From the NCBI GenBank assembly GCA_035285865.1, contig JAYKHS010000028.1, forward strand, positions 64,001 to 128,000: a stretch of DNA of 64,000 nt. The letters run 5' to 3'. Source of the DNA: Candidatus Sericytochromatia bacterium (GTDB lineage Bacteria > Cyanobacteriota > Sericytochromatia > S15B-MN24 > VGJW01). The notes under the pieces were generated by a model. It was not told the origin of the DNA, made no database searches, and saw only the letters and a program-made list of their open reading frames with translations. Positions 30,046-40,241 of the stretch are shown one piece after another. Each line of letters opens with the position of its first letter. The first letter of the stretch is position 1. The translations under genes and the position numbers were made by a program.

Positions 30046-30552
30046 TCAGAAGTTCTTGAGCGTCAGCACCCTTACCGGATGGTTGCCGCGCTTGCCCGTG
30101 CCACCGATAAGGTACTGGCCTTCAGTCGAGGTGTTGCTGTAGGCAATGGCGCCGTAACTTGCGGTCGACACCGGGTCGAGCCGATTGCCCAGTTCGTTCG
30201 CGTAGACGTGGTCATTGGGGGTGTCGTCGCAAGCCAAGGACGTGTTGACCGCCTGCTGCGTTCCCCAAGGGGTGGGCGGGTAGGTGTCGTTCGGCAGGTA
30301 GTCTTCGCTGCCCCCGATGAAAGCGTGTCCGTCGACCGAGGTCCGGAGCGTGGCCGGGTAGTGGTTGTTGATGTCCGAGCCCCAGACCTCAATGGCCTGT
30401 TGCACGATCCGGAGGTTGTTCTGGACATTCGCGTTCCGCGACTTGTCCTGGGCCCCTGCGTAGTTGGGGATGGCTACTGCTGCAAGGATTCCGATGATGA
30501 CCACGACGACCAGCAGTTCGATCATCGTGAAGCCCCGAGGGGGGGCGTGCAT
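30046..30552 (-). CDS. type IV pilin / type II secretion pseudopilin
   Basis: prepilin motif RG|FTMIELLVVVVIIGILAAVAIP (G-1, F1, E5). Confidence 0.92.
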   Translation of the reverse strand: MHAPPRGFTMIELLVVVVIIGILAAVAIPNYAGAQDKSRNANVQNNLRIVQQAIEVWGSDINNHYPATLRTSVDGHAFIGGSEDYLPNDTYPPTPWGTQQAVNTSLACDDTPNDHVYANELGNRLDPVSTASYGAIAYSNTSTEGQYLIGGTGKRGNHPVRVLTLKNF

Positions 30553-30618
30553 GAATCTGCGAGACACGGGGTTGTTGTTCCCCGTGCCTCGCGACACTAA
30601 CCTGCAACCCCGGGCAGA

Positions 30619-31737
30619 TCAGGAGCCGGCAGCCACTCCGCCGTAGGGAACTTCCACGATCTGGGCCTTGGGGCCTTCCACGCCTTTGAAGCCATCGTCG
30701 GCCACTACCGGGGCGGGCGGCGCTGGTGCCGGTCCCGGTTCCGGCGCGGGGACGGGAGAGGGTACGGGAGCGGGTGCCGGAGCCGGCTTCTTCTCCTCTT
30801 CCTCTTCTTTCTTCGTCGTCACGATGACTGGAGCGGGGAAGACGGGAGCGGGAGCCGGCGACTGCGGGGCCGGCTGGTTGACGACGGGACCGGGTTCGGC
30901 CTGCGTGGGCTTCTTGCGGACTGTATTCCAGAGATCCCCGAAGGCCTTGGCCAGTTCGGCGAGCGCGGTAAGGCCGTTTGCCACGTCCTGAATACCGGTT
31001 CCCTTCCCACCATTGCCTTGAGCCTTTCCATTGCCCTGCGCCTGGCCAGAGCCCTGGGTCTCGCCGCTGTTCTGCGCGGGAGCCGAACCGCCGGATGCCG
31101 GTGCCGGGCTCGACGGGGCCGCCGGCTGGTTCTGTTGCTGGGCTGGCGGCTTGCCGCCGGCCACGACCTTGGGCATGAAGATCTCGACCTTGGCCGAACG
31201 ATCCGTCTGATCGTTGTTGTCAAGCGGCTTGCCGGGGTTGCTGGGCGTACCGGCCCCCTTGCTCTTGATGGCGCTCGCAGGAACATCGATGCCCTGCTTG
31301 GCGAGGAATGCCTTCACGTGCGCCGCCGTCTCGGTGGCGCGACGGGCAGACAGACCCTGGTTGTCGTAGCTGCTCTTGGTCCCTGCGTTGGAGGCGTAGC
31401 CCGTGACGTCGATGCGGAATCCGGGGTCGGCCAGCAGGGTCTTCTGTTGTTCGGGCGACATCATCTTGAAGTCCGCCGAGAACTGGTTGAGCATCTTGTC
31501 CAGATCCTGCGTGCCGCCCCGCGGATCGGACTTGCCGGTCTGGAAGAGAGCTTGGCCGCTGTAGGCCGGACGACTACCCGACACCGCGCTGGAAGAGATC
31601 GACGAGACGTCGCCTACGGCCTGGCTCCGGGGCGCGTTTGCAGGCGCACCCTGCGACGCCGGCGGGGCCGAGACCGTCGTGCGCCCCGTCTGGGACGACA
31701 GCGGCTGGGTGGACTTGCCCGTGACGTTGTTCAACAT
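30619..31737 (-). CDS. OmpA-C-like domain protein with Pro/Ala-rich tail and no Sec signal
   Basis: FQTGKSD...IDVTGYAS...NQGLSARRA...KGAG...DRSAKVEI; AAGGAG SD before ATG 31737. Confidence 0.8.
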   Translation of the reverse strand: MLNNVTGKSTQPLSSQTGRTTVSAPPASQGAPANAPRSQAVGDVSSISSSAVSGSRPAYSGQALFQTGKSDPRGGTQDLDKMLNQFSADFKMMSPEQQKTLLADPGFRIDVTGYASNAGTKSSYDNQGLSARRATETAAHVKAFLAKQGIDVPASAIKSKGAGTPSNPGKPLDNNDQTDRSAKVEIFMPKVVAGGKPPAQQQNQPAAPSSPAPASGGSAPAQNSGETQGSGQAQGNGKAQGNGGKGTGIQDVANGLTALAELAKAFGDLWNTVRKKPTQAEPGPVVNQPAPQSPAPAPVFPAPVIVTTKKEEEEEKKPAPAPAPVPSPVPAPEPGPAPAPPAPVVADDGFKGVEGPKAQIVEVPYGGVAAGS

Positions 31738-31810
31738 GGCCCGCGACTCCTTCCGTACCTGACGGTTTATGCCTGTCTCGCCGGAGAGGACTGCGGAAGT
31801 TACAGGGATT

Positions 31811-33127
31811 TCACGAAGATTTGACGCTCGGTCCGCGTGGCATGCCGGTGAGCAGGAGCCAGCCCAGCAGCAGCATGATGCCCTGGCTACCGAGCGCAAG
31901 CCTGAAGCGGTCTTCACCAAGTCCTTGTCCCAGCGTGACGGTCACGCCCCATACCAAGGGGCCGACGACGGCCGCAGCGCGGCCCACGAGGGCCCAGATG
32001 CCGAAGACCGTGCCGTGCGTCTCAGGTGGGGCCAACTGGCTCAGATAGGGGCGGACGATGGTGCCCGTCCCCCCCATGCACCAGCCGATGGCCGGACCCA
32101 CCACCCAGCGGAAGAGGTCGGCGTCCCGGATGCCCACGGCAAGGGCCAAGGCCACCGCCCATGAGCCGAGACAGAGGTGCAGCGCCCTGCCGGGCCCCCA
32201 TGCGTCGGTCATTCTGCCCCACGCGAAGGCCCCGCCAATGGCGACGATCGTGCTTGTCGCCAACAACAGTTCCACATCGCTTCCCGCCTTGAGGCCGATG
32301 GCCCGCGTGGCGTAAGTGGCCATGAACAAGATGACGGTGTTGACGGCATCCATGAAAAGCAGGTTCGCCAGCATGAAGCGCCCCAGGCCCGGATGTCGGG
32401 TTGGCGACAGGGTATCCCGAATCATGCGGAAGGTTTCCCGAAGGCCTTCCGGGGCAGGTTCACGGACGGGTGCCCGGTCAGGCAGGAGCAGGAATGCCGG
32501 TATGGCGAAGAGCAGGTAAAGCAAGGCCGATGGCACGAAGGCTGCCTCGGGACCACCGCTTCCCCATGGCATGCTCCAGGGGCCCAGTCTTCCGCTGACG
32601 AAGGAACCGACCACGGCAAGGCCCAGCAGCGTGCCCATGAACCCCACACCGATCCCGGCAGCCGACCATCGGCCGCGATCGGCAGGAGCCGCAAGGTCCG
32701 GAAGAAGCCCGTGGTAGACGGACTGGGACAGCTGGAACCCGATGATCGAGACGCCGAGGAGCGTTGCCGCGACCCAGGTTCCGGCCTGATGGCCCGCCCA
32801 GGGGACCAGAATCGTGACGCCGATGCACAGCAGGGCCCACCCTCGCAACAGCACCATGCGCCGGCCGGTGCGGTCCGACCAGGCGCCCTGCAGGGGGGCG
32901 ATGACAGCCACCACCACCATGGCCATCGTGACGGTCCAGGCCCAGAGGCTGTCCGAGGCGCCCAGCACGTCTTGCAGGAACAACTGCCCGTGGATGGACA
33001 GCACATCGATGCTCCAGATGATGTACGCGAAGTCGTACAACACCCAGGCCCTCAGGGCCTTCACGTCGCTTTCGGCAGGGCCGGACGTCACGGTGCCCGG
33101 GAGGCCGCTCAGCCCGGCTTCTTCCAC
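31811..33127 (-). CDS. MFS transporter (UMF1/Atg22-like)
   Basis: ~12 TM segments; AWVLYDFA, GAWSDRTGRR. Confidence 0.9.
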   Translation of the reverse strand: MEEAGLSGLPGTVTSGPAESDVKALRAWVLYDFAYIIWSIDVLSIHGQLFLQDVLGASDSLWAWTVTMAMVVVAVIAPLQGAWSDRTGRRMVLLRGWALLCIGVTILVPWAGHQAGTWVAATLLGVSIIGFQLSQSVYHGLLPDLAAPADRGRWSAAGIGVGFMGTLLGLAVVGSFVSGRLGPWSMPWGSGGPEAAFVPSALLYLLFAIPAFLLLPDRAPVREPAPEGLRETFRMIRDTLSPTRHPGLGRFMLANLLFMDAVNTVILFMATYATRAIGLKAGSDVELLLATSTIVAIGGAFAWGRMTDAWGPGRALHLCLGSWAVALALAVGIRDADLFRWVVGPAIGWCMGGTGTIVRPYLSQLAPPETHGTVFGIWALVGRAAAVVGPLVWGVTVTLGQGLGEDRFRLALGSQGIMLLLGWLLLTGMPRGPSVKSS

Positions 33128-33783
33128 GTGCCCCCCGATTCGATCCGACGGCGGACATTGCGTGCGATGTCACGAGTACCTTGCTGTTGCAGGCCCGAGA
33201 TGACCCAGCCCGGGATCAGGTTGCCTGTCGTGTCGACCCCCAAGGCATATTCCAAACAGGCGCCTTCGCCGAGAGGATGCATCTGCCAGCGTCCTTCGAG
33301 CCGGCGGAAAGGCGTCCGGACCTGGACCCAGCGAATGGTGCGCGTGGCAGGAACACCCCAGCGCCGAATCGTCAGGTCCGGCGCGAAGGGAACCTGGCTG
33401 ACCATCCGCAACACGGTGCCGTCCGGTTGCTCGCCAAGAACCCGCACCGAGTGCAAGCTGGGCATGAAGTCGGCCAACTTGGCCGGATCCGCAAGGATCT
33501 TGAAGCACTCATCCGGGGAAGCCTTGGCCCAGAAGCGGAGGACCGATCCCCTGAGGCCGTCGGCGTGTTCGAAGTTCCGGGTGAGGACCTGACCTGACTG
33601 CAACCGGGCGGCGTCCGCCTCACTGGGTACGGCGATCGTTTCGGGCAGCCCCGATTCGCCGCTCTCGGCCCAAGCGGGCTGTTGCAGCAGCACGGACAAC
33701 AGGAGCGCCGTGAGCAGCTGGCCCGGATTGGAGAAGAAGTTGCCCGCCTTAGAAGTTGTTGCCGAAAGGATTGCTGATACCAC
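33109..33783 (-). CDS. SRPBCC/START (polyketide cyclase-like) exported protein
   Basis: ASPDECFKILADP..LADFMP, LEGRW, LIPGWV; signal-like LLTALLLSVLL..AWA; start uncertain (GTG 33783 lies inside motB). Confidence 0.7.
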   Translation of the reverse strand: MVSAILSATTSKAGNFFSNPGQLLTALLLSVLLQQPAWAESGESGLPETIAVPSEADAARLQSGQVLTRNFEHADGLRGSVLRFWAKASPDECFKILADPAKLADFMPSLHSVRVLGEQPDGTVLRMVSQVPFAPDLTIRRWGVPATRTIRWVQVRTPFRRLEGRWQMHPLGEGACLEYALGVDTTGNLIPGWVISGLQQQGTRDIARNVRRRIESGGTWKKPG

Positions 33784-34585
33784 CGTTGTTGAAGGGATTC
33801 TGGAAGTTGCCCGGAGTCGGATAGCTGTATCCCGGGGCCACCAGCTGGTCGGAGGGTGTCGGGCTGGGCGTGAGTGCTGCCTTGGGGGCATCGGCGGACA
33901 CGACGAGGTCCACACGCCTGTTGAGGGCGCGGTGCTGGGCCGTATCGTTCGGGAAAAGCGGGCGGAACTCCGCATAGCTCGTGGCCGAGAGGCGCTTGGG
34001 CGCAATCTTGCCTTCGCGAACGAGAAACTCCACGACCTTGATGGAACGATCGCCTGCAAGTCGCCAATTGGTGCCCGCTGCCCCGCCCGGCGAGATATTG
34101 TCGGTGTGTCCCTCGACGCTGATGGCATTGGGCATCTTCTGCAGGGCCTGGGCCGCCTTGCGCAGGGCTTGCTTGAGCGCCGGCTTCAGGTCCGTGGAAT
34201 TTGCATCGAAGAAGGCCGTGTCGTACAGGCTGATGACGAGACCCCGATCCTGAAGGTCGACGCGAACCTGGGAGCGTCCGTCGAACTTCGCGATGGCCTG
34301 CTTGACCCGTGCCTGCGCCTCCTGGATCTGGTCCGTCTTCACGGTGGCCGGGGTGTTCGCGAAGATGTCCTGGCCTTCCTTCTTCTTGATGCTCGAGGCC
34401 TGCTTCATGGACTGGGTGATCTTGGCGAAGTTCTCCACCGAGATACGGCTCGACATCGCGTACATGACGACGAAGAAGACCATCAGGAGGGTGATGAAGT
34501 CCGCGTAGGTAATGAGCCACCGTTCGCGGTCGTTATGCTGCTCTTCTTCCCCTTCGCGCTGAAGGCGCCAGTCCTTGGCCCTCAT
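33749..34585 (-). CDS. motB: stator protein MotB
   Basis: WLITYADFITLLMVFFVVMY with conserved Asp; VEGHTD, NWRL, NRRV peptidoglycan-binding domain. Confidence 0.92.
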   Translation of the reverse strand: MRAKDWRLQREGEEEQHNDRERWLITYADFITLLMVFFVVMYAMSSRISVENFAKITQSMKQASSIKKKEGQDIFANTPATVKTDQIQEAQARVKQAIAKFDGRSQVRVDLQDRGLVISLYDTAFFDANSTDLKPALKQALRKAAQALQKMPNAISVEGHTDNISPGGAAGTNWRLAGDRSIKVVEFLVREGKIAPKRLSATSYAEFRPLFPNDTAQHRALNRRVDLVVSADAPKAALTPSPTPSDQLVAPGYSYPTPGNFQNPFNNGGISNPFGNNF

Positions 34586-34588
34586 GCG

Positions 34589-35437
34589 TCAGCCCTCGTC
34601 GTACTGGGGCACGGCCATCTCGGGTTCTGCACCGCCGAGGCCCGCCGTGGGGCCTGCGTTGCGTCGGGTCTTTGCCGAGGCCCGGATCGTCTTGCGGGTG
34701 GACGGGGGCAGGCTGACCTGAAGGCGTTCGTTGATCAGCCTCGGGTTCGCACCCGCTTGCATGGCGAGGATGATCTCGACCATGACCCAGCGGATGCGCA
34801 GTTCCTCCTCCGAGTTCTTGCGCAGCTTGTTGGCCAGCGGCAGAAAGAACAGGTTGGCGGCACCGACACCATAGAGGGTGGCCACCATGGCCGTCGCGAT
34901 TTCGGGGCCGAGTTGCTCCGGTTTGTCGAGGTTTCCGAGGACGGAGACCATGCTCAGGACCGTACCGAGGATGCCCAAGGTCGGACAGTAGGCCCCCAAG
35001 GACTCAAATACCGCAATGTTGGTACGGTGTCGGCCCCGTATCGCGAGCATCTCGGCCTCGAGCAGGTCCTGGATCTCCTGAGAGTCGAAGCCTTCCGTGA
35101 TGTACTGCATCCCGCGCTTCAGGAACGGATCCTCGATGTTGCCGATGTCCTTCATCGTGCCCTGGATGCCGGCCGTGCGCAGACGGGTGGAGAGCTTCAT
35201 GAGCTTGGCCACCACTTCGACCATCTCGATGCTGGCAGGTTTGAGCGCTTCCCAAGTCAGGCGCGGGATGGCCAGGACCCGATCGGCGGGAAAGGACATG
35301 AACGCCGCAGTTGCCGACCCGCCCAGCACGATGACGAAGGCATGCCACGACCACAGGGCGGCGGCGCTGCCGCCTTGCAGGGCCAGGGCGCTGAGCAGGA
35401 AGAAGATGAGGGCCACGAGGCCGAACATGTTCCGCAT
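34589..35437 (-). CDS. motA: stator protein MotA
   Basis: IVLGGS, DPFLKRG, PTLGILGTVL, ATLYGVGAANLFFLP, GANPR motifs. Confidence 0.92.
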   Translation of the reverse strand: MRNMFGLVALIFFLLSALALQGGSAAALWSWHAFVIVLGGSATAAFMSFPADRVLAIPRLTWEALKPASIEMVEVVAKLMKLSTRLRTAGIQGTMKDIGNIEDPFLKRGMQYITEGFDSQEIQDLLEAEMLAIRGRHRTNIAVFESLGAYCPTLGILGTVLSMVSVLGNLDKPEQLGPEIATAMVATLYGVGAANLFFLPLANKLRKNSEEELRIRWVMVEIILAMQAGANPRLINERLQVSLPPSTRKTIRASAKTRRNAGPTAGLGGAEPEMAVPQYDEG

Positions 35438-36555: not shown

Positions 36556-36802
36556 GCTCGGGATCTGTACCCGGGCCCGCGCGTTCGCGAAACCTTTTAG
36601 GGAATCTTGGTCGGGGGTGAAAAGGTTGTTGCAGGCGCCCGGGGAGGGGCGACGCGGGTATGGACCATGCAGAACGCCTCTCCCGACCCGGCGGTCCTAA
36701 GTGTTGCCCGAGGATTAAGCTTAGCGGCGCCCGGAGAGGACGCGGCGACAAGTCGGGTGTGAAGGCCAGGGCCCCGGGGGGGGAGCCCAGCGCAACGAGG
36801 AG

Positions 36803-38140
36803 ATGACGATGTCCAGCATTCAGGGCGGGTCGACCTGGACCCCGAGTTTCGACACGGTGAAGATGACGCCGAATGCGTCGGTGCCCCAGATCAAGGACGA
36901 GGCCGCCGTCGTGCCCACGGGTTCCTCCGAGGAGCGTGGTGCTCAGGAAGAAGTCGTCACGGAACTGCCCACCGGTGGCGTCACCCTCGACCGTCCGACT
37001 GTCGAGGGCGATGTCGTGGGGGGCAACATCGTTCCGGACCGTGGTGGGTTCGTGGACGATCGCAACGCCATCGGCGGCAACCAGCAGGTGGATGGCAGCC
37101 GCGTGCCCGATTATGCGACGGCTGTGCAGAATCCCGCCCGCCCCACCAATCTGGGGGTGGATCAGCTGGGCTCGGACCCGCGTAGCACCGCTCCCGAACT
37201 GCCTCGGACGCCCATCAACACGGTCGTGGGCGGCATCGGCCAGGTGCTGGATCGGGTCAGCAACGGCGAGCGGGGTGACAAGATGGCCGGCGACCTGTCG
37301 TCGCTCATCGACAAGTTCAAGGACGATCCCGCCCTGCAGAAGCTGCTCATGAAGCTGTACGAGATCGCGATGGGCCAGGGTAATCCGTATGACGTCGCCG
37401 GGATCATCAAGGAGATCGAAGGTTACCTGAACAGCAAGGCGAAGATCATGTTCCCGCAGCATGAGCCCTGGGAGGCCATCGTCCAGCGCCCCGACGGTTC
37501 CAGCGAGCGCGTTTCCGTCCCGCCTGGCACCACCGAGGCTTCGTACAACGCCAATCCCTTCCCGCTCAATACGTCCCGTGGCCCGGCGACCGCGGGCGGG
37601 GGCACCGGCACCCATGATCCGCTCAAGATCACGCTGGACGGCACGGACGCGAAGGTCAACACGACGGACAACAGCCAGATTCGCCTCGACGACGGCCGCG
37701 AAGTGACCATGTCGGGCGGTCTCAACGACAACGAGGCCTGGCTGGTCAAGGACCGCAACGGCGACGGCACGTCCAAGAACAATGGCGTCATCGACGGCAA
37801 CGAGATCTTCGGCGACCACCTGGGCAAGTTCAAGAACGCCTATGACGAACTGGCTCATGAGTACGCCGCCGAGCTCAAGACGGACGAGCAGGGCCGCAAG
37901 TACATCGATCTTGCGGACCCGAACTCGGTCGCGGCCAAGGAACTCAAGCTGATGGACAAGGCCGGCAACTACATCCACGCCGCGGACAAGCTGCAGAAGC
38001 TCTACGTGTCGTGGGACGAGGTGAACATCCAGGCTGGCGACGGCCAAACCTCGCTGCGTCAGCAGGCCCTTGTCCAGTACAACGATGGCAAGGTGGCGAA
38101 GTCGGCCGACCAGTGGTTCGGCGAGAAGCAGGCCGCCTGA
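36803..38140 (+). CDS. protein with C-terminal FrpC-like Ca2+-dependent self-processing (Asp-Pro) module
   Basis: HDPLKITLDG, WLVKDRNGDG..IDGNEIFGD, NAYDELA, GDGQTSLRQQ...DGKVAKSADQWF; GAGGAG SD; strongly biased codons. Confidence 0.75.
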   Translation: MTMSSIQGGSTWTPSFDTVKMTPNASVPQIKDEAAVVPTGSSEERGAQEEVVTELPTGGVTLDRPTVEGDVVGGNIVPDRGGFVDDRNAIGGNQQVDGSRVPDYATAVQNPARPTNLGVDQLGSDPRSTAPELPRTPINTVVGGIGQVLDRVSNGERGDKMAGDLSSLIDKFKDDPALQKLLMKLYEIAMGQGNPYDVAGIIKEIEGYLNSKAKIMFPQHEPWEAIVQRPDGSSERVSVPPGTTEASYNANPFPLNTSRGPATAGGGTGTHDPLKITLDGTDAKVNTTDNSQIRLDDGREVTMSGGLNDNEAWLVKDRNGDGTSKNNGVIDGNEIFGDHLGKFKNAYDELAHEYAAELKTDEQGRKYIDLADPNSVAAKELKLMDKAGNYIHAADKLQKLYVSWDEVNIQAGDGQTSLRQQALVQYNDGKVAKSADQWFGEKQAA

Positions 38141-38150
38141 GTCGCTGGTG

Positions 38151-38193
38151 ACGGGGGGCGTTCCGCTCGTGGGCGGGACGTCCCCCGTTGTTT
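38151..38193 (+). terminator. intrinsic terminator
   Basis: ACGGGGGGCGTTCCGC-loop-GCGGGACGTCCCCCGT followed by TGTTT. Confidence 0.65.
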
Positions 38194-38227: not shown

Positions 38228-39172
38228 ATGACTGCTGCATTGTCCCGGCCTCTCAGTCGTCTGGCCCTGGCCTTGGCCGTGACGACGATGCCTCTGCCGG
38301 TTCTGGCGGCCGGTCTCGAAAGCGATGCCTCCGACCTGCATCGAGAGGTCTTGGTTCGCCTCGCGGACCAGCTGATCGGGCTGGGTTACGTGCAGTCCGG
38401 CGAACGGGTCTGGTGGGAACCGGAGCACGCGGGCTCAACGGATTCGGACGCCGATATCCTGCGTGCCATGTTGGCGCGCGCCCTGATGATGCGCGGCGTG
38501 GTGCTGGTCGACCGGGAGCCGGATGCCCAGGTGCGCCTCGAGGCGCGCATGCTCCGTGGACCCGGGGAGGTCGTCTATCGGCCCGAGCTTGTCGAGGGGC
38601 GTCCGGGACCCAGCTACACGGTGACGCACCGCCTCGTGGTCCGCTCCGTCGAGTCGGGCTCGAAGCAGGTGCGTGGGGCGGATGTCCTGGTCGTTCAACT
38701 TCAGCCTTTTGCCCCGATTGAGGTTCTTGCGCCCGCAGGGGCACCGGGCGCACAGCGACCCGGGGTGCCGCACCCGGTCCGGGAGCTCCAGGGGGTGGGG
38801 CTTGCAGTGTCCAATCTGTCGGGTTCCGGCTTCTCCTATCGGCGCTGGACCGCATCCGGGCTTGGCTATCAGATATCGGGCTTTCCCTATGTCAATGGCC
38901 CGGATACGTTCTTCAACGCGGGCGGACAGGTGATGCAGTCCTTCTTCGAAGCTCCGTGGGGCCGAGGATACGGGCTTGGCTCGGCCGGTGCCGGATTCGG
39001 CAGTGTCGCGGATCGCTGGTTCGGCGGCACGGCATGGAACCTCAGTGTCGGAGGCGGGCTCGATCTGCGCCTTGCCGGCAACCTGGTGCTGTGCGCGCAA
39101 CTCGCCTACAGCATCTCTGCGGGAAACCGCGTCGGTCCCGGCGTGGGTGCCGGAGCCTACATCGAGTTCTGA
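38228..39172 (+). CDS. exported protein with small C-terminal outer-membrane beta-barrel (paralog 1)
   Basis: signal peptide; GLAVSNLSGSGFSYRRW..GLGYQ; ends YIEF (terminal Phe). Confidence 0.75.
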   Translation: MTAALSRPLSRLALALAVTTMPLPVLAAGLESDASDLHREVLVRLADQLIGLGYVQSGERVWWEPEHAGSTDSDADILRAMLARALMMRGVVLVDREPDAQVRLEARMLRGPGEVVYRPELVEGRPGPSYTVTHRLVVRSVESGSKQVRGADVLVVQLQPFAPIEVLAPAGAPGAQRPGVPHPVRELQGVGLAVSNLSGSGFSYRRWTASGLGYQISGFPYVNGPDTFFNAGGQVMQSFFEAPWGRGYGLGSAGAGFGSVADRWFGGTAWNLSVGGGLDLRLAGNLVLCAQLAYSISAGNRVGPGVGAGAYIEF

Positions 39173-39200
39173 TGAGCCTCTTGAACGGGTGGAACGAGCG

Positions 39201-40241
39201 ATGCGCTTAGAGCAGTTTCTGACCGGATGCATGGCCGCTCCTTGCCTTGCGATGGCCTTGGGCGCCGTGGCTGTCGCGGCCCCGCCACCCGATGCCACGA
39301 CGTTCCATCGCGTCAACATGGAGGATGTGGCAGACCGTCTGCTGGGAGGGGAGCAGCCTTGGCTCAGGAAGGGGGAGCGTGTGTGGCTGTCGGATTCGGC
39401 CTCGCTTCGTACCGCGCGGGATAACGATGCACGGGCTTTGAAGCACATGTTGATGGCAGCGCTCGCGCGTCGCGGGATTGTGTTCACGGCCTCCGAGGAG
39501 CGTGCCGATGTGATGCTGGCTCTGTCCTTCCCGGATGTGCAAGGGGAGAATCTGTTCTTCCGGCAGGAGTTGCTGGGTGTCCGGCCGGGTCCGTCCTGGC
39601 AACTTCGTGATCGCTTGACCGTCCGTGCGGTCGACCGGGCTACCGGGCGTGTCCGGGGCGAAGACTACCTTGTCTCCGAGTACATGCCGTTCGGGGGCGG
39701 GACTGCCGTGCCTGGGTCCGAGGCTTCCGGAACCGCTAGTCCTTCCGTGCCGGACCTTGGCTCGGTCCAGGCCGAGCTGACAGGCTACGGACTGTCTGTC
39801 TCGTGGCTTTCGGGATCGGGCTTTGCCTGGCGGCGCTGGTTGTCGGACGGCTGGGGCTGGCAGTTGGCGGGCATCCCCTACAGCGATGGCACGTACTACT
39901 TCCACAATGCCGGGGGGCAGGTGATGCGCCAGCTGTTCGAGGGGCGGCCCGGACGACTCTATCTGCTCGGGGCCGTCGGTGCGGCCTATGGGACAACCGG
40001 TCCCACCGGCTGGGATCAGTTGTCCGATGACGGGAGCACCTACAACCGTCAGCCAACCTTGCTCTGGAACCTCAGCGCCGGACTCGGGGCCGACCTTCGT
40101 CTGAGTCCAAACTTTGTGGTCGCGCTCGGGGCGGGCTACAGCATGAGCCCCCGGGCCAGCATCGACGCCAGCTACCGTGTCCGGACGGAAAGCGTGGGGG
40201 TCACGCCGGCATTCTCCGCAGGGACGTTCCTCGAGTTCTGA
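39201..40241 (+). CDS. exported protein with small C-terminal outer-membrane beta-barrel (paralog 2)
   Basis: signal peptide; GLSVSWLSGSGFAWRRW..GWGWQ; NAGGQVM shared with paralog 1; ends FLEF. Confidence 0.75.
   Translation: MRLEQFLTGCMAAPCLAMALGAVAVAAPPPDATTFHRVNMEDVADRLLGGEQPWLRKGERVWLSDSASLRTARDNDARALKHMLMAALARRGIVFTASEERADVMLALSFPDVQGENLFFRQELLGVRPGPSWQLRDRLTVRAVDRATGRVRGEDYLVSEYMPFGGGTAVPGSEASGTASPSVPDLGSVQAELTGYGLSVSWLSGSGFAWRRWLSDGWGWQLAGIPYSDGTYYFHNAGGQVMRQLFEGRPGRLYLLGAVGAAYGTTGPTGWDQLSDDGSTYNRQPTLLWNLSAGLGADLRLSPNFVVALGAGYSMSPRASIDASYRVRTESVGVTPAFSAGTFLEF

Follow-up and report, generated by a model that had tools for sequence, protein, structure and literature searches.

The open reading frame at 36803-38140 (+) of the window, that is, of the 64,000-nucleotide stretch of Candidatus Sericytochromatia DNA analysed here, encodes a protein whose C-terminal domain is, as judged by profiles and a predicted model, a homologue of FrpC's self-processing module (SPM), with an Asp-Pro pair in register. 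Sequence comparison places this domain in a subfamily of 67 sequences, many of them on pilin-like N-termini, which is defined by the loss of calcium loops and by the residues K275, E311 and W313. By analogy with FrpC, we propose that the protein would be exported unfolded, fold at low Ca2+, cleave itself at D272-P273 and link its passenger to a lysine, a reading to which we give a probability of about 0.45. The cleavage itself is predicted with more confidence and can be called probable; cleavage that also yields a useful cross-link is predicted at slightly less than even odds. The loop-stripped subfamily and the apparently repeated switching of SPMs between Ser and Asp go beyond the initial annotation. 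An SPM family with RTX-free clusters (PF26745) already exists in Pfam 38.1.

The ORF (445 aa) is a real coding gene under purifying selection against three congeneric orthologues, and this selection is strongest in the module, with a dN/dS of 0.004-0.04 for residues 272-445, compared with 0.05-0.07 for residues 144-271 and 0.13-0.16 for residues 1-143. A Shine-Dalgarno sequence, GAGGAG (36797-36802, +), directly abuts the ATG at 36803 and lies six bases before the ATG at 36809. Since, in addition, the aligned orthologues have no ATG equivalent to 36803 (L004 and L005 start with MSSIQ), translation probably starts at 36809, which would give 443 aa and a site at D270-P271. Residue numbers nevertheless count from the ATG at 36803, hence Asp272-Pro273.

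From the N- to the C-terminus, sequence and model give a disordered N-terminus, a four-helix passenger, a flexible linker, His-Asp-Pro, the SPM fold and the stop codon. Residues 1-143 (36803-37231, +) form a variable region of predicted disorder (pLDDT below 50) with no signal peptide, and the passenger core, residues 144-264 (37232-37594, +), is modelled as a four-helix bundle (144-213) and a small beta subdomain. The flexible linker GGGTGTH (37595-37615, +; pLDDT below 50 at residues 265-269) ends in His271 and is followed by Asp272-Pro273 (GAT CCG, 37616-37621, +), which structural and profile register make the equivalent of the scissile Asp414-Pro415 of FrpC. The SPM-fold domain, a divergent one by profile, model and structure match, runs from P273 to A445 (37619-38137, +), and the protein ends nine residues past D436, with no tail after the module and no cysteine anywhere. 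The Asp-Pro after GGGTGTH, together with all the motifs quoted in the initial annotation, is present in the ORF.

That annotation had assigned the module to FrpC from its motifs and named profile and structure comparison as a check; both match. A single-sequence phmmer search of the PDB missed FrpC and returned xylanase noise only, and the protein has no match in NCBIfam or in a local copy of Pfam, with none from Pfam even at E≤1. A profile built from 12 close relatives matched 6SJW, the FrpC SPM, over the whole module with an E-value of 8.5e-4, Pro273 falling on SPM residue 1. The module-only profile reached 0.0067 against the PDB, and a 52-row profile with full-length rows, probably diluted, found nothing there. 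Residues 267-445 were modelled by AlphaFold from 52 sequences with a pLDDT of 95 and a pTM of 0.91, and it is on this predicted model, not on a solved structure, that the fold match rests: Foldseek returned 6SJX and 6SJW at E-values of 3.4e-8 and 5.4e-8 (probability 1.00, TM 0.67), the next match lying at 0.1. In VIA, the FrpC SPM structures scored Z 15.3 and 15.0 (14.4 in the wide search) and no other of 998 chains reached Z 2, the best match having an rmsd of 2.9 Å over 154 residues at 25% identity. The register was the same as in the profile, with model residue 7 (Pro273) on 6SJW residue 1 and model residues 4 to 179 on 6SJX residues -2 to 174. The nearest clusters of the module in the ESM Atlas were all PF26745 SPM clusters (features 0.90, TM 0.80), and precomputed annotation gives PF26745 for one relative (P0013), not for P0002-P0012.

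According to PMC7078468, FrpC cleavage results when the module folds about four Ca2+ ions and a pair of Trp residues, and D478 and D579 are ligands of a transient fifth Ca2+, their replacement by Ala reducing or abolishing cleavage. With FrpC numbers counted along the 6SJW chain (residue 1 being Pro415) and functional residues taken from the same source, the residues around the scissile bond are kept in the window protein and the folding loops are not. Beside D414-P415 itself, D462 (D317 in the window protein), E474 (E334), G477 (G337), D478 (D338), D499 (D361) and D579 (D436) are conserved; D338 is present in 70 of 71 covered rows and D436 in all 70. By contrast, D419 has become T277, D423 T281, D456 E311, A417 K275, W451 G306, L458 W313 and G491 A346, so that the site-4 loop (D419/D421/D423/G424 and D456) reads T277, D279, T281, D282 and E311. 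W519 and EF3 are absent, and the inner acidic positions of EF2 are lost; the places of EF2 and EF3 (D499-D511 and D521-E532) are modelled as hairpins in which D361 and D385 alone remain. EF1 (D462-E474) is retained as D317-x-N-x-D-G and E334, with an insertion of 4-5 residues and a fifth position that varies among orthologues.

These losses go beyond the remodelled central loops that had been noticed at the outset, and they are uniform. The site-4 motif is found in none of the 67 subfamily rows and in 115 of 123 other SPM rows, the EF2 motif and the W519-EF3 motif each in 0/67 against 120/123, and Trp in the W451 column in 0/67 against 123/123. The three residues found instead, K275, E311 and W313, are invariant in the 67 rows, while Lys is never among the commonest residues in the 275 column of the other 123. 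Since K275 lies on the same strand as the lost D419 position, two residues before it, the simplest reading is that a K275-E311 pair replaces the site-4 ion, although one evolutionary event is all that this covariation represents; W313 may fill the space of the lost Trp pair. Outside the cell, the module would then fold with much less Ca2+ than FrpC, EF2 and EF3 being plain hairpins, and would retain the transient metal site (D272 carbonyl, D338 and D436) and the modified EF1.

The same losses count against cleavage, as features that serve Ca2+-dependent folding in FrpC and line its cleavage 'port' are altered (Gly for W451, Ala for G491, three loops gone). They favour another interpretation, in which the SPM fold is a non-cleaving cap, metal-binding, adhesive or structural, of exported or pilus-tip proteins and Asp is a tolerated substitute for Ser as a turn-capping residue: the loops and Trp pair that activate FrpC are missing in 67/67. 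Conservation of the fold and of the D478 and D579 equivalents does not prove cleavage or anhydride chemistry, because Ser/Thr-Pro relatives share it. RTX SPM proteins encoded beside type I genes likewise carry Ser/Thr-Pro together with these equivalents, and among the Ser-Pro SPM rows of the wider family all Ca2+ loops and both Trp are kept in 90-96 of 97.

The residue at the site is the second line of evidence. In the 67 covered rows from the representative search and the close hits, the invariant Pro follows Ser in 42, Asp in 15 (two of which are the window's own protein), Thr in 6, Cys in 3 and Ala in 1; among the 120 listed relatives of a signal-less paralogue it is Ser in 95, Asp in 19 and Thr in 1, five being without a residue call. 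The initial annotation had made conservation of the Asp-Pro a check on its proposal. The outcome is split: the pair survives in 11 of 12 close rows, but the wider family is mostly Ser (42/67; 95/115). The predominance of Ser, Thr or Cys (51/67; 96/115 in the paralogue relatives), which extends to the sister clade and to four paralogues of the source genome, speaks for a capping role. On the other hand, capping should admit Asn, and neither Asn nor Gly occurs at the site in any of 182 resolved rows (baselines 3% and 8%), while Ser, Thr, Cys or Asp occupies it in 181 of these 182, against a baseline of 15% for such motifs. The three Cys rows, the richer Gly/Pro content of the linkers before Asp forms (0.24 and 0.53, compared with 0.10) and the fixation of Asp over a whole clade also speak against a mere cap, which we consider unlikely without dismissing it.

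That clade comprises 14 rows, including the window protein (support 94), in which Asp is fixed across different passengers at a module identity of 50-65%, and it is sister to four His-Ser-Pro rows. On a 190-row tree built without the site itself, the distribution of Asp and non-Asp takes 7 changes, as did a first build, in which at least 4 changes were forced by well-supported branches and shuffled labels gave a mean of 33; the tree is unrooted and of FastTree quality, and related rows make the counts overstate independence. Its rows were extracted with a pattern admitting only D, S, T, C and A, so that the unbiased counts are those of the 67-row and 115-row sets. From these 7 changes we infer that Asp arose repeatedly, the kind of switching expected of a functional toggle, with gain of Asp from Ser as the likelier direction. 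In the FrpC SPM, His, Tyr or Trp before Asp gives the fastest cleavage and Gly barely cleaves, a flexible linker aids cleavage, and D414A abolishes cleavage and coupling (PMC7846742). In favour of cleavage, 12 of the 15 Asp rows in the subfamily place His or Tyr ahead of the Asp; against it, the site also follows His, Tyr, Phe or Trp in 21 of the 52 Ser/Thr/Cys rows there, and Gly precedes it in 9 of 18 Asp rows of the other subfamily.

The SPM has been described in RTX proteins only (PMC3034196) and as exclusive to a subset of large RTX proteins (PMC7078468), both in the accessible parts of those texts, and the initial annotation regarded the absence of RTX repeats, tail and Sec signal in the window protein as unusual. 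The absence is borne out by nonapeptide, hydropathy and family searches, and the protein contains no RTX nonapeptide; it is not unusual, as two or more nonapeptides occur in none of 191 relatives examined and the source genome has four other SPM genes. RTX-free SPM proteins are common. A representative search gave 60 clusters at E≤0.001, the longest of 1463 aa, without RTX. The further SPM-fold genes of the source genome (C28:34237-35475, C24:87825-88997, C5:116775-118778 and C15:31541-33073) are all Ser-Pro, three of them with signal-like N-termini; the signal-less one matches 6SJW directly (E 2e-7), its family and the window module match with a probability of 93.5% in profile comparison, and 116 of its 120 listed relatives have no hydrophobic N-terminal stretch. 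Of the 47 class genomes, 23 proved to have SPM genes, with up to 16 matches each; the family is expanded in the order to which the source genome belongs, and searching 20 genomes from three other families of the class gave none. The subfamily of the window protein occurs in 5 of the 47, with none further in a 401-genome sample of the phylum. Eight plasmid-borne SPM proteins taken from 86 matching plasmid records comprise 3 Asp, 3 Ser and 2 Thr forms; the three Ser forms, from Roseobacter, Pseudomonas and Sinorhizobium plasmids (L057, L059 and L062), carry 7-40 RTX repeats and are RTX proteins, annotated as FrpC-like or calcium-binding, whose SPM begins with Ser-Pro.

In the subfamily, 39 of 71 proteins begin with a hydrophobic segment of pilin-like, TadG-like or signal-peptide type and have the same loop losses, which suggests that the stripped module works outside the cell. 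This speaks against a further interpretation, by which loss of the Ca2+ loops would adapt the module to low calcium in an intracellular self-processing or tagging protein. Such a role would suit a protein with no known export signal and the loss of Ca2+ sites, and agrees poorly with the lack of cysteines and the long disordered N-terminus; we regard it as very improbable. Among 49 SPM relatives scanned, the N-terminus carries a Tad domain in 8 and an N-methylation motif in 6. Ser/Thr/Cys-Pro SPMs form the C-terminus of type IV pilin-like and TadG-like proteins (P0017-P0060 and L007), and one Vampirovibrionaceae MAG has three tandem pilin-like genes with the module (L007:701-8699). These proteins are candidates for self-processing pilus-tip adhesins; a stable tip domain in this position would make sense under the capping interpretation.

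How the window protein itself would leave the cell is a separate question. It has no hydrophobic N-terminal stretch, its maximum 11-residue hydropathy being 0.43, where four signal-bearing proteins encoded in the source genome reach 1.8-2.8, and none was seen in 13 of 13 Asp-clade proteins checked. The source genome, which is 82.7% complete and could thus lack a type I system by omission, has no match to the RTX family (PF00353) and none above cut-off to the type I adaptor (TIGR01843). Given that the searches revealed neither a Sec signal nor an RTX tail nor a type I system, we propose, at a confidence somewhat below even, that the protein passes unfolded and with its N-terminus leading through one of the genome's two flagellar-type type III export gates; the case is circumstantial. 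A long, disordered, signal-less N-terminus fits type III export. In the source genome FlhA, FlhB, FliP, FliF, FliI, FlgC and FlgG are duplicated, and one FliG, FlgK and FlgH each were found. Besides the main C22 cluster, a second scattered set (C22:4145-10273, C26:110934-121515, C28:60019-61317, C5:44208-45494 and 33749-35437 of the window) comprises FliR/Q/P/O/N, FlgF/G/A/H/I, FlgB/C, FliE/F, FlhA, FlhB, FliI, a FliA-like sigma factor and extra MotAB. The second FlhA scores just below the FlhA cut-off and further below that of SctV, and 1.4 kb upstream of the gene, on the opposite strand, is a motA-motB pair that does not belong to the main flagellar cluster. However, nearly every genome of the class has two full FlhA copies, also in families in which no SPM was found, so that their co-occurrence with SPM genes gives no support for this route. 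Stand-alone proteins resembling the C-terminal cytoplasmic half of FlhA (FHIPEP about 320-655) are also expanded in the class, with up to 12 matches per genome (G002-G009, G035-G043 and others). Type III-associated proteins with Ca2+-induced Asp-Pro self-cleavage exist in another domain family, MIIA/NopE (PMC6506597), and set a precedent for the proposed route.

By analogy with FrpC, the D272-P273 amide would probably be twisted in the folded module, Asp272 would cyclise into an anhydride and the module, of 19 kDa, would be freed. The anhydride on the 29 kDa passenger may then react with a lysine on whatever partner the four-helix bundle binds; the passenger itself, a surface appendage or another cell are possible partners, the product being a covalent surface or matrix link. 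The passenger, as noted initially, is unrecognised: it belongs to no Pfam or NCBIfam family, has no match in the ESM Atlas or by Foldseek, and occurs only with this type of gene among the 47 genomes of the class. Its identification as HPt, b562 or another named fold was rejected, the matches being to generic four-helix bundles only (Z≤8.5); a weak match in one class genome (G004) is an unrelated helical protein, and an apparent likeness to the passenger of the Ser-Pro paralogue was also rejected, as it covers only 18 residues and the profile comparison aligned the modules alone.

Cleavage could also serve release or maturation alone, of the passenger or of the module, with the anhydride lost to hydrolysis and no physiological cross-link formed. 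The anhydride is quickly hydrolysed unless a lysine is kept close (PMC12538545, PMC7846742), MIIA domains are described as cleave-and-release switches (PMC6506597), and outside the genus the gene has no conserved FrpD-like partner next to it. Against pure release, the passenger core is conserved (dN/dS 0.05-0.07) and has the form of a binding-type four-helix bundle; the core holds 8 of the 10 passenger lysines, and 12 Asp-form passengers carry 9-15 lysines each, which would permit linkage to self or partner. We consider release alone improbable, more so than a non-cleaving cap.

The DNA around the gene was inspected for signals and partners. A motif upstream, TGTTG-N8-ATTAAG.TTA (36702-36724, +), is a candidate promoter or regulator site; the upstream regions of congeneric genes that could be aligned retain it in 4 of 4 cases, with diverging flanks. 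It has no sigma-70 match, a sigma-28 promoter was rejected as no convincing spacing was found, a genome scan gave only a few weak look-alikes and no clear regulon, and inspection by eye did not find it before flagellin genes. Weaker copies (TGTT-N9-ATTAA) precede two other genes of the source genome (C22:148314, +; C2:40082, -), both encoding alanine-rich, apparently signal-less proteins. A GC-rich hairpin with a short T tail after the stop (38148-38193, +; outer bounds judged by eye) is a possible terminator and suggests a single-gene unit, but the one terminator-like site detected (38171-38183) is not above chance, 0.9 being expected in shuffled sequence.

The neighbouring genes are conserved within the genus only, and no conserved partner gene was found beside homologues outside it. 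Two paralogous, signal-bearing proteins encoded downstream (38228-39172 and 38976-40241) are syntenic in the genus and end in Phe like outer-membrane barrels, with no Pfam or NCBIfam match; as they are absent beside the distant relatives inspected, they were set aside as candidates for an FrpD-like receptor or export pore. Upstream, a gene for a protein that lacks a signal, is of low complexity at its ends and has a weak OmpA-family domain (30619-31920, -; E 2e-5, below cut-off) adjoins a pilin-like gene (30046-30597). One aquaculture metatranscriptome contains 0.11 of the sequence words, with three short contigs on the gene (95-99% identity) and further contigs on two neighbouring genes; these matches are not counted as evidence of expression, as DNA carry-over is possible. 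The nearest named genomes are Candidatus Sericytochromatia and Candidatus Tanganyikabacteria MAGs.

By keeping the scissile bond and both aspartates that flank it while lacking three loops and both Trp, the protein amounts to a natural experiment in which the folding trigger is separated from the twisted-amide chemistry, and the Ser-Pro sister clade and paralogues make the role of the majority Ser form directly testable. Anhydride ligation tools, for which premature Ca2+-driven cleavage is a stated problem and the homologues tested were 60-98% identical to the FrpC SPM (PMC12538545), would also profit from a small SPM whose metal dependence differs. A much broader scheme, which we put forward as speculative and rather unlikely in full, would make the SPM a mobile C-terminal self-processing domain far beyond RTX proteins (on pilin tips, Tad pilins, Sec and signal-less exports), with one residue setting the chemistry: an N-O/N-S acyl shift, or hydrolysis assisted by metal, for Ser/Thr/Cys-Pro, and an anhydride for Asp-Pro, a form that would have evolved repeatedly. 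The window protein would then be a nearly calcium-independent anhydride generator that leaves by the second flagellar-type export system and welds proteins to surfaces or prey. Among the papers within reach of our literature search, to which most subscription papers do not belong, none dealt with RTX-free, Ser-Pro or calcium-loop-depleted SPMs.

Three groups of known systems invite comparison. The RTX-free Asp-Pro proteins of the MIIA/DUF1521 type (Bradyrhizobium NopE1, Vibrio coralliilyticus VIC_001052), for which metal-induced self-cleavage is reported in PMC6506597, have a GDPH motif and another domain, whereas the window protein has HDPL, the SPM fold and no Pfam match. The hypothetical proteins of PF26745 from Sericytochromatia, Myxococcota and others (e.g., C28:34237) share the disordered signal-less N-terminus, the C-terminal SPM and the lack of a tail, but keep the Ca2+ loops and both Trp, and have mostly Ser instead of Asp. 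From the FrpC/ApxIVA class, the window protein and its 82.7% complete genome differ in that no RTX repeats, C-terminal type I signal or type I secretion genes were found. Compared with FrpC itself, the protein has 445 aa instead of more than 1000 and a module that is C-terminal and lacks the site-4 loop, EF2, EF3 and W451/W519, with K275, E311 and W313 instead; no FrpD-like lipoprotein gene lies upstream, and the host lineage is free-living and uncultured. With FrpC it nevertheless shares the fold, the Asp-Pro at the first strand, the D478/D579 equivalents, G477, a His/Tyr-type residue (His271) before Asp and an unrelated passenger in front. The window SPM most likely works as that of FrpC does, in a protein that departs from the FrpC/ApxIVA class in several of its defining features (RTX context, three Ca2+ loops, Trp pair).
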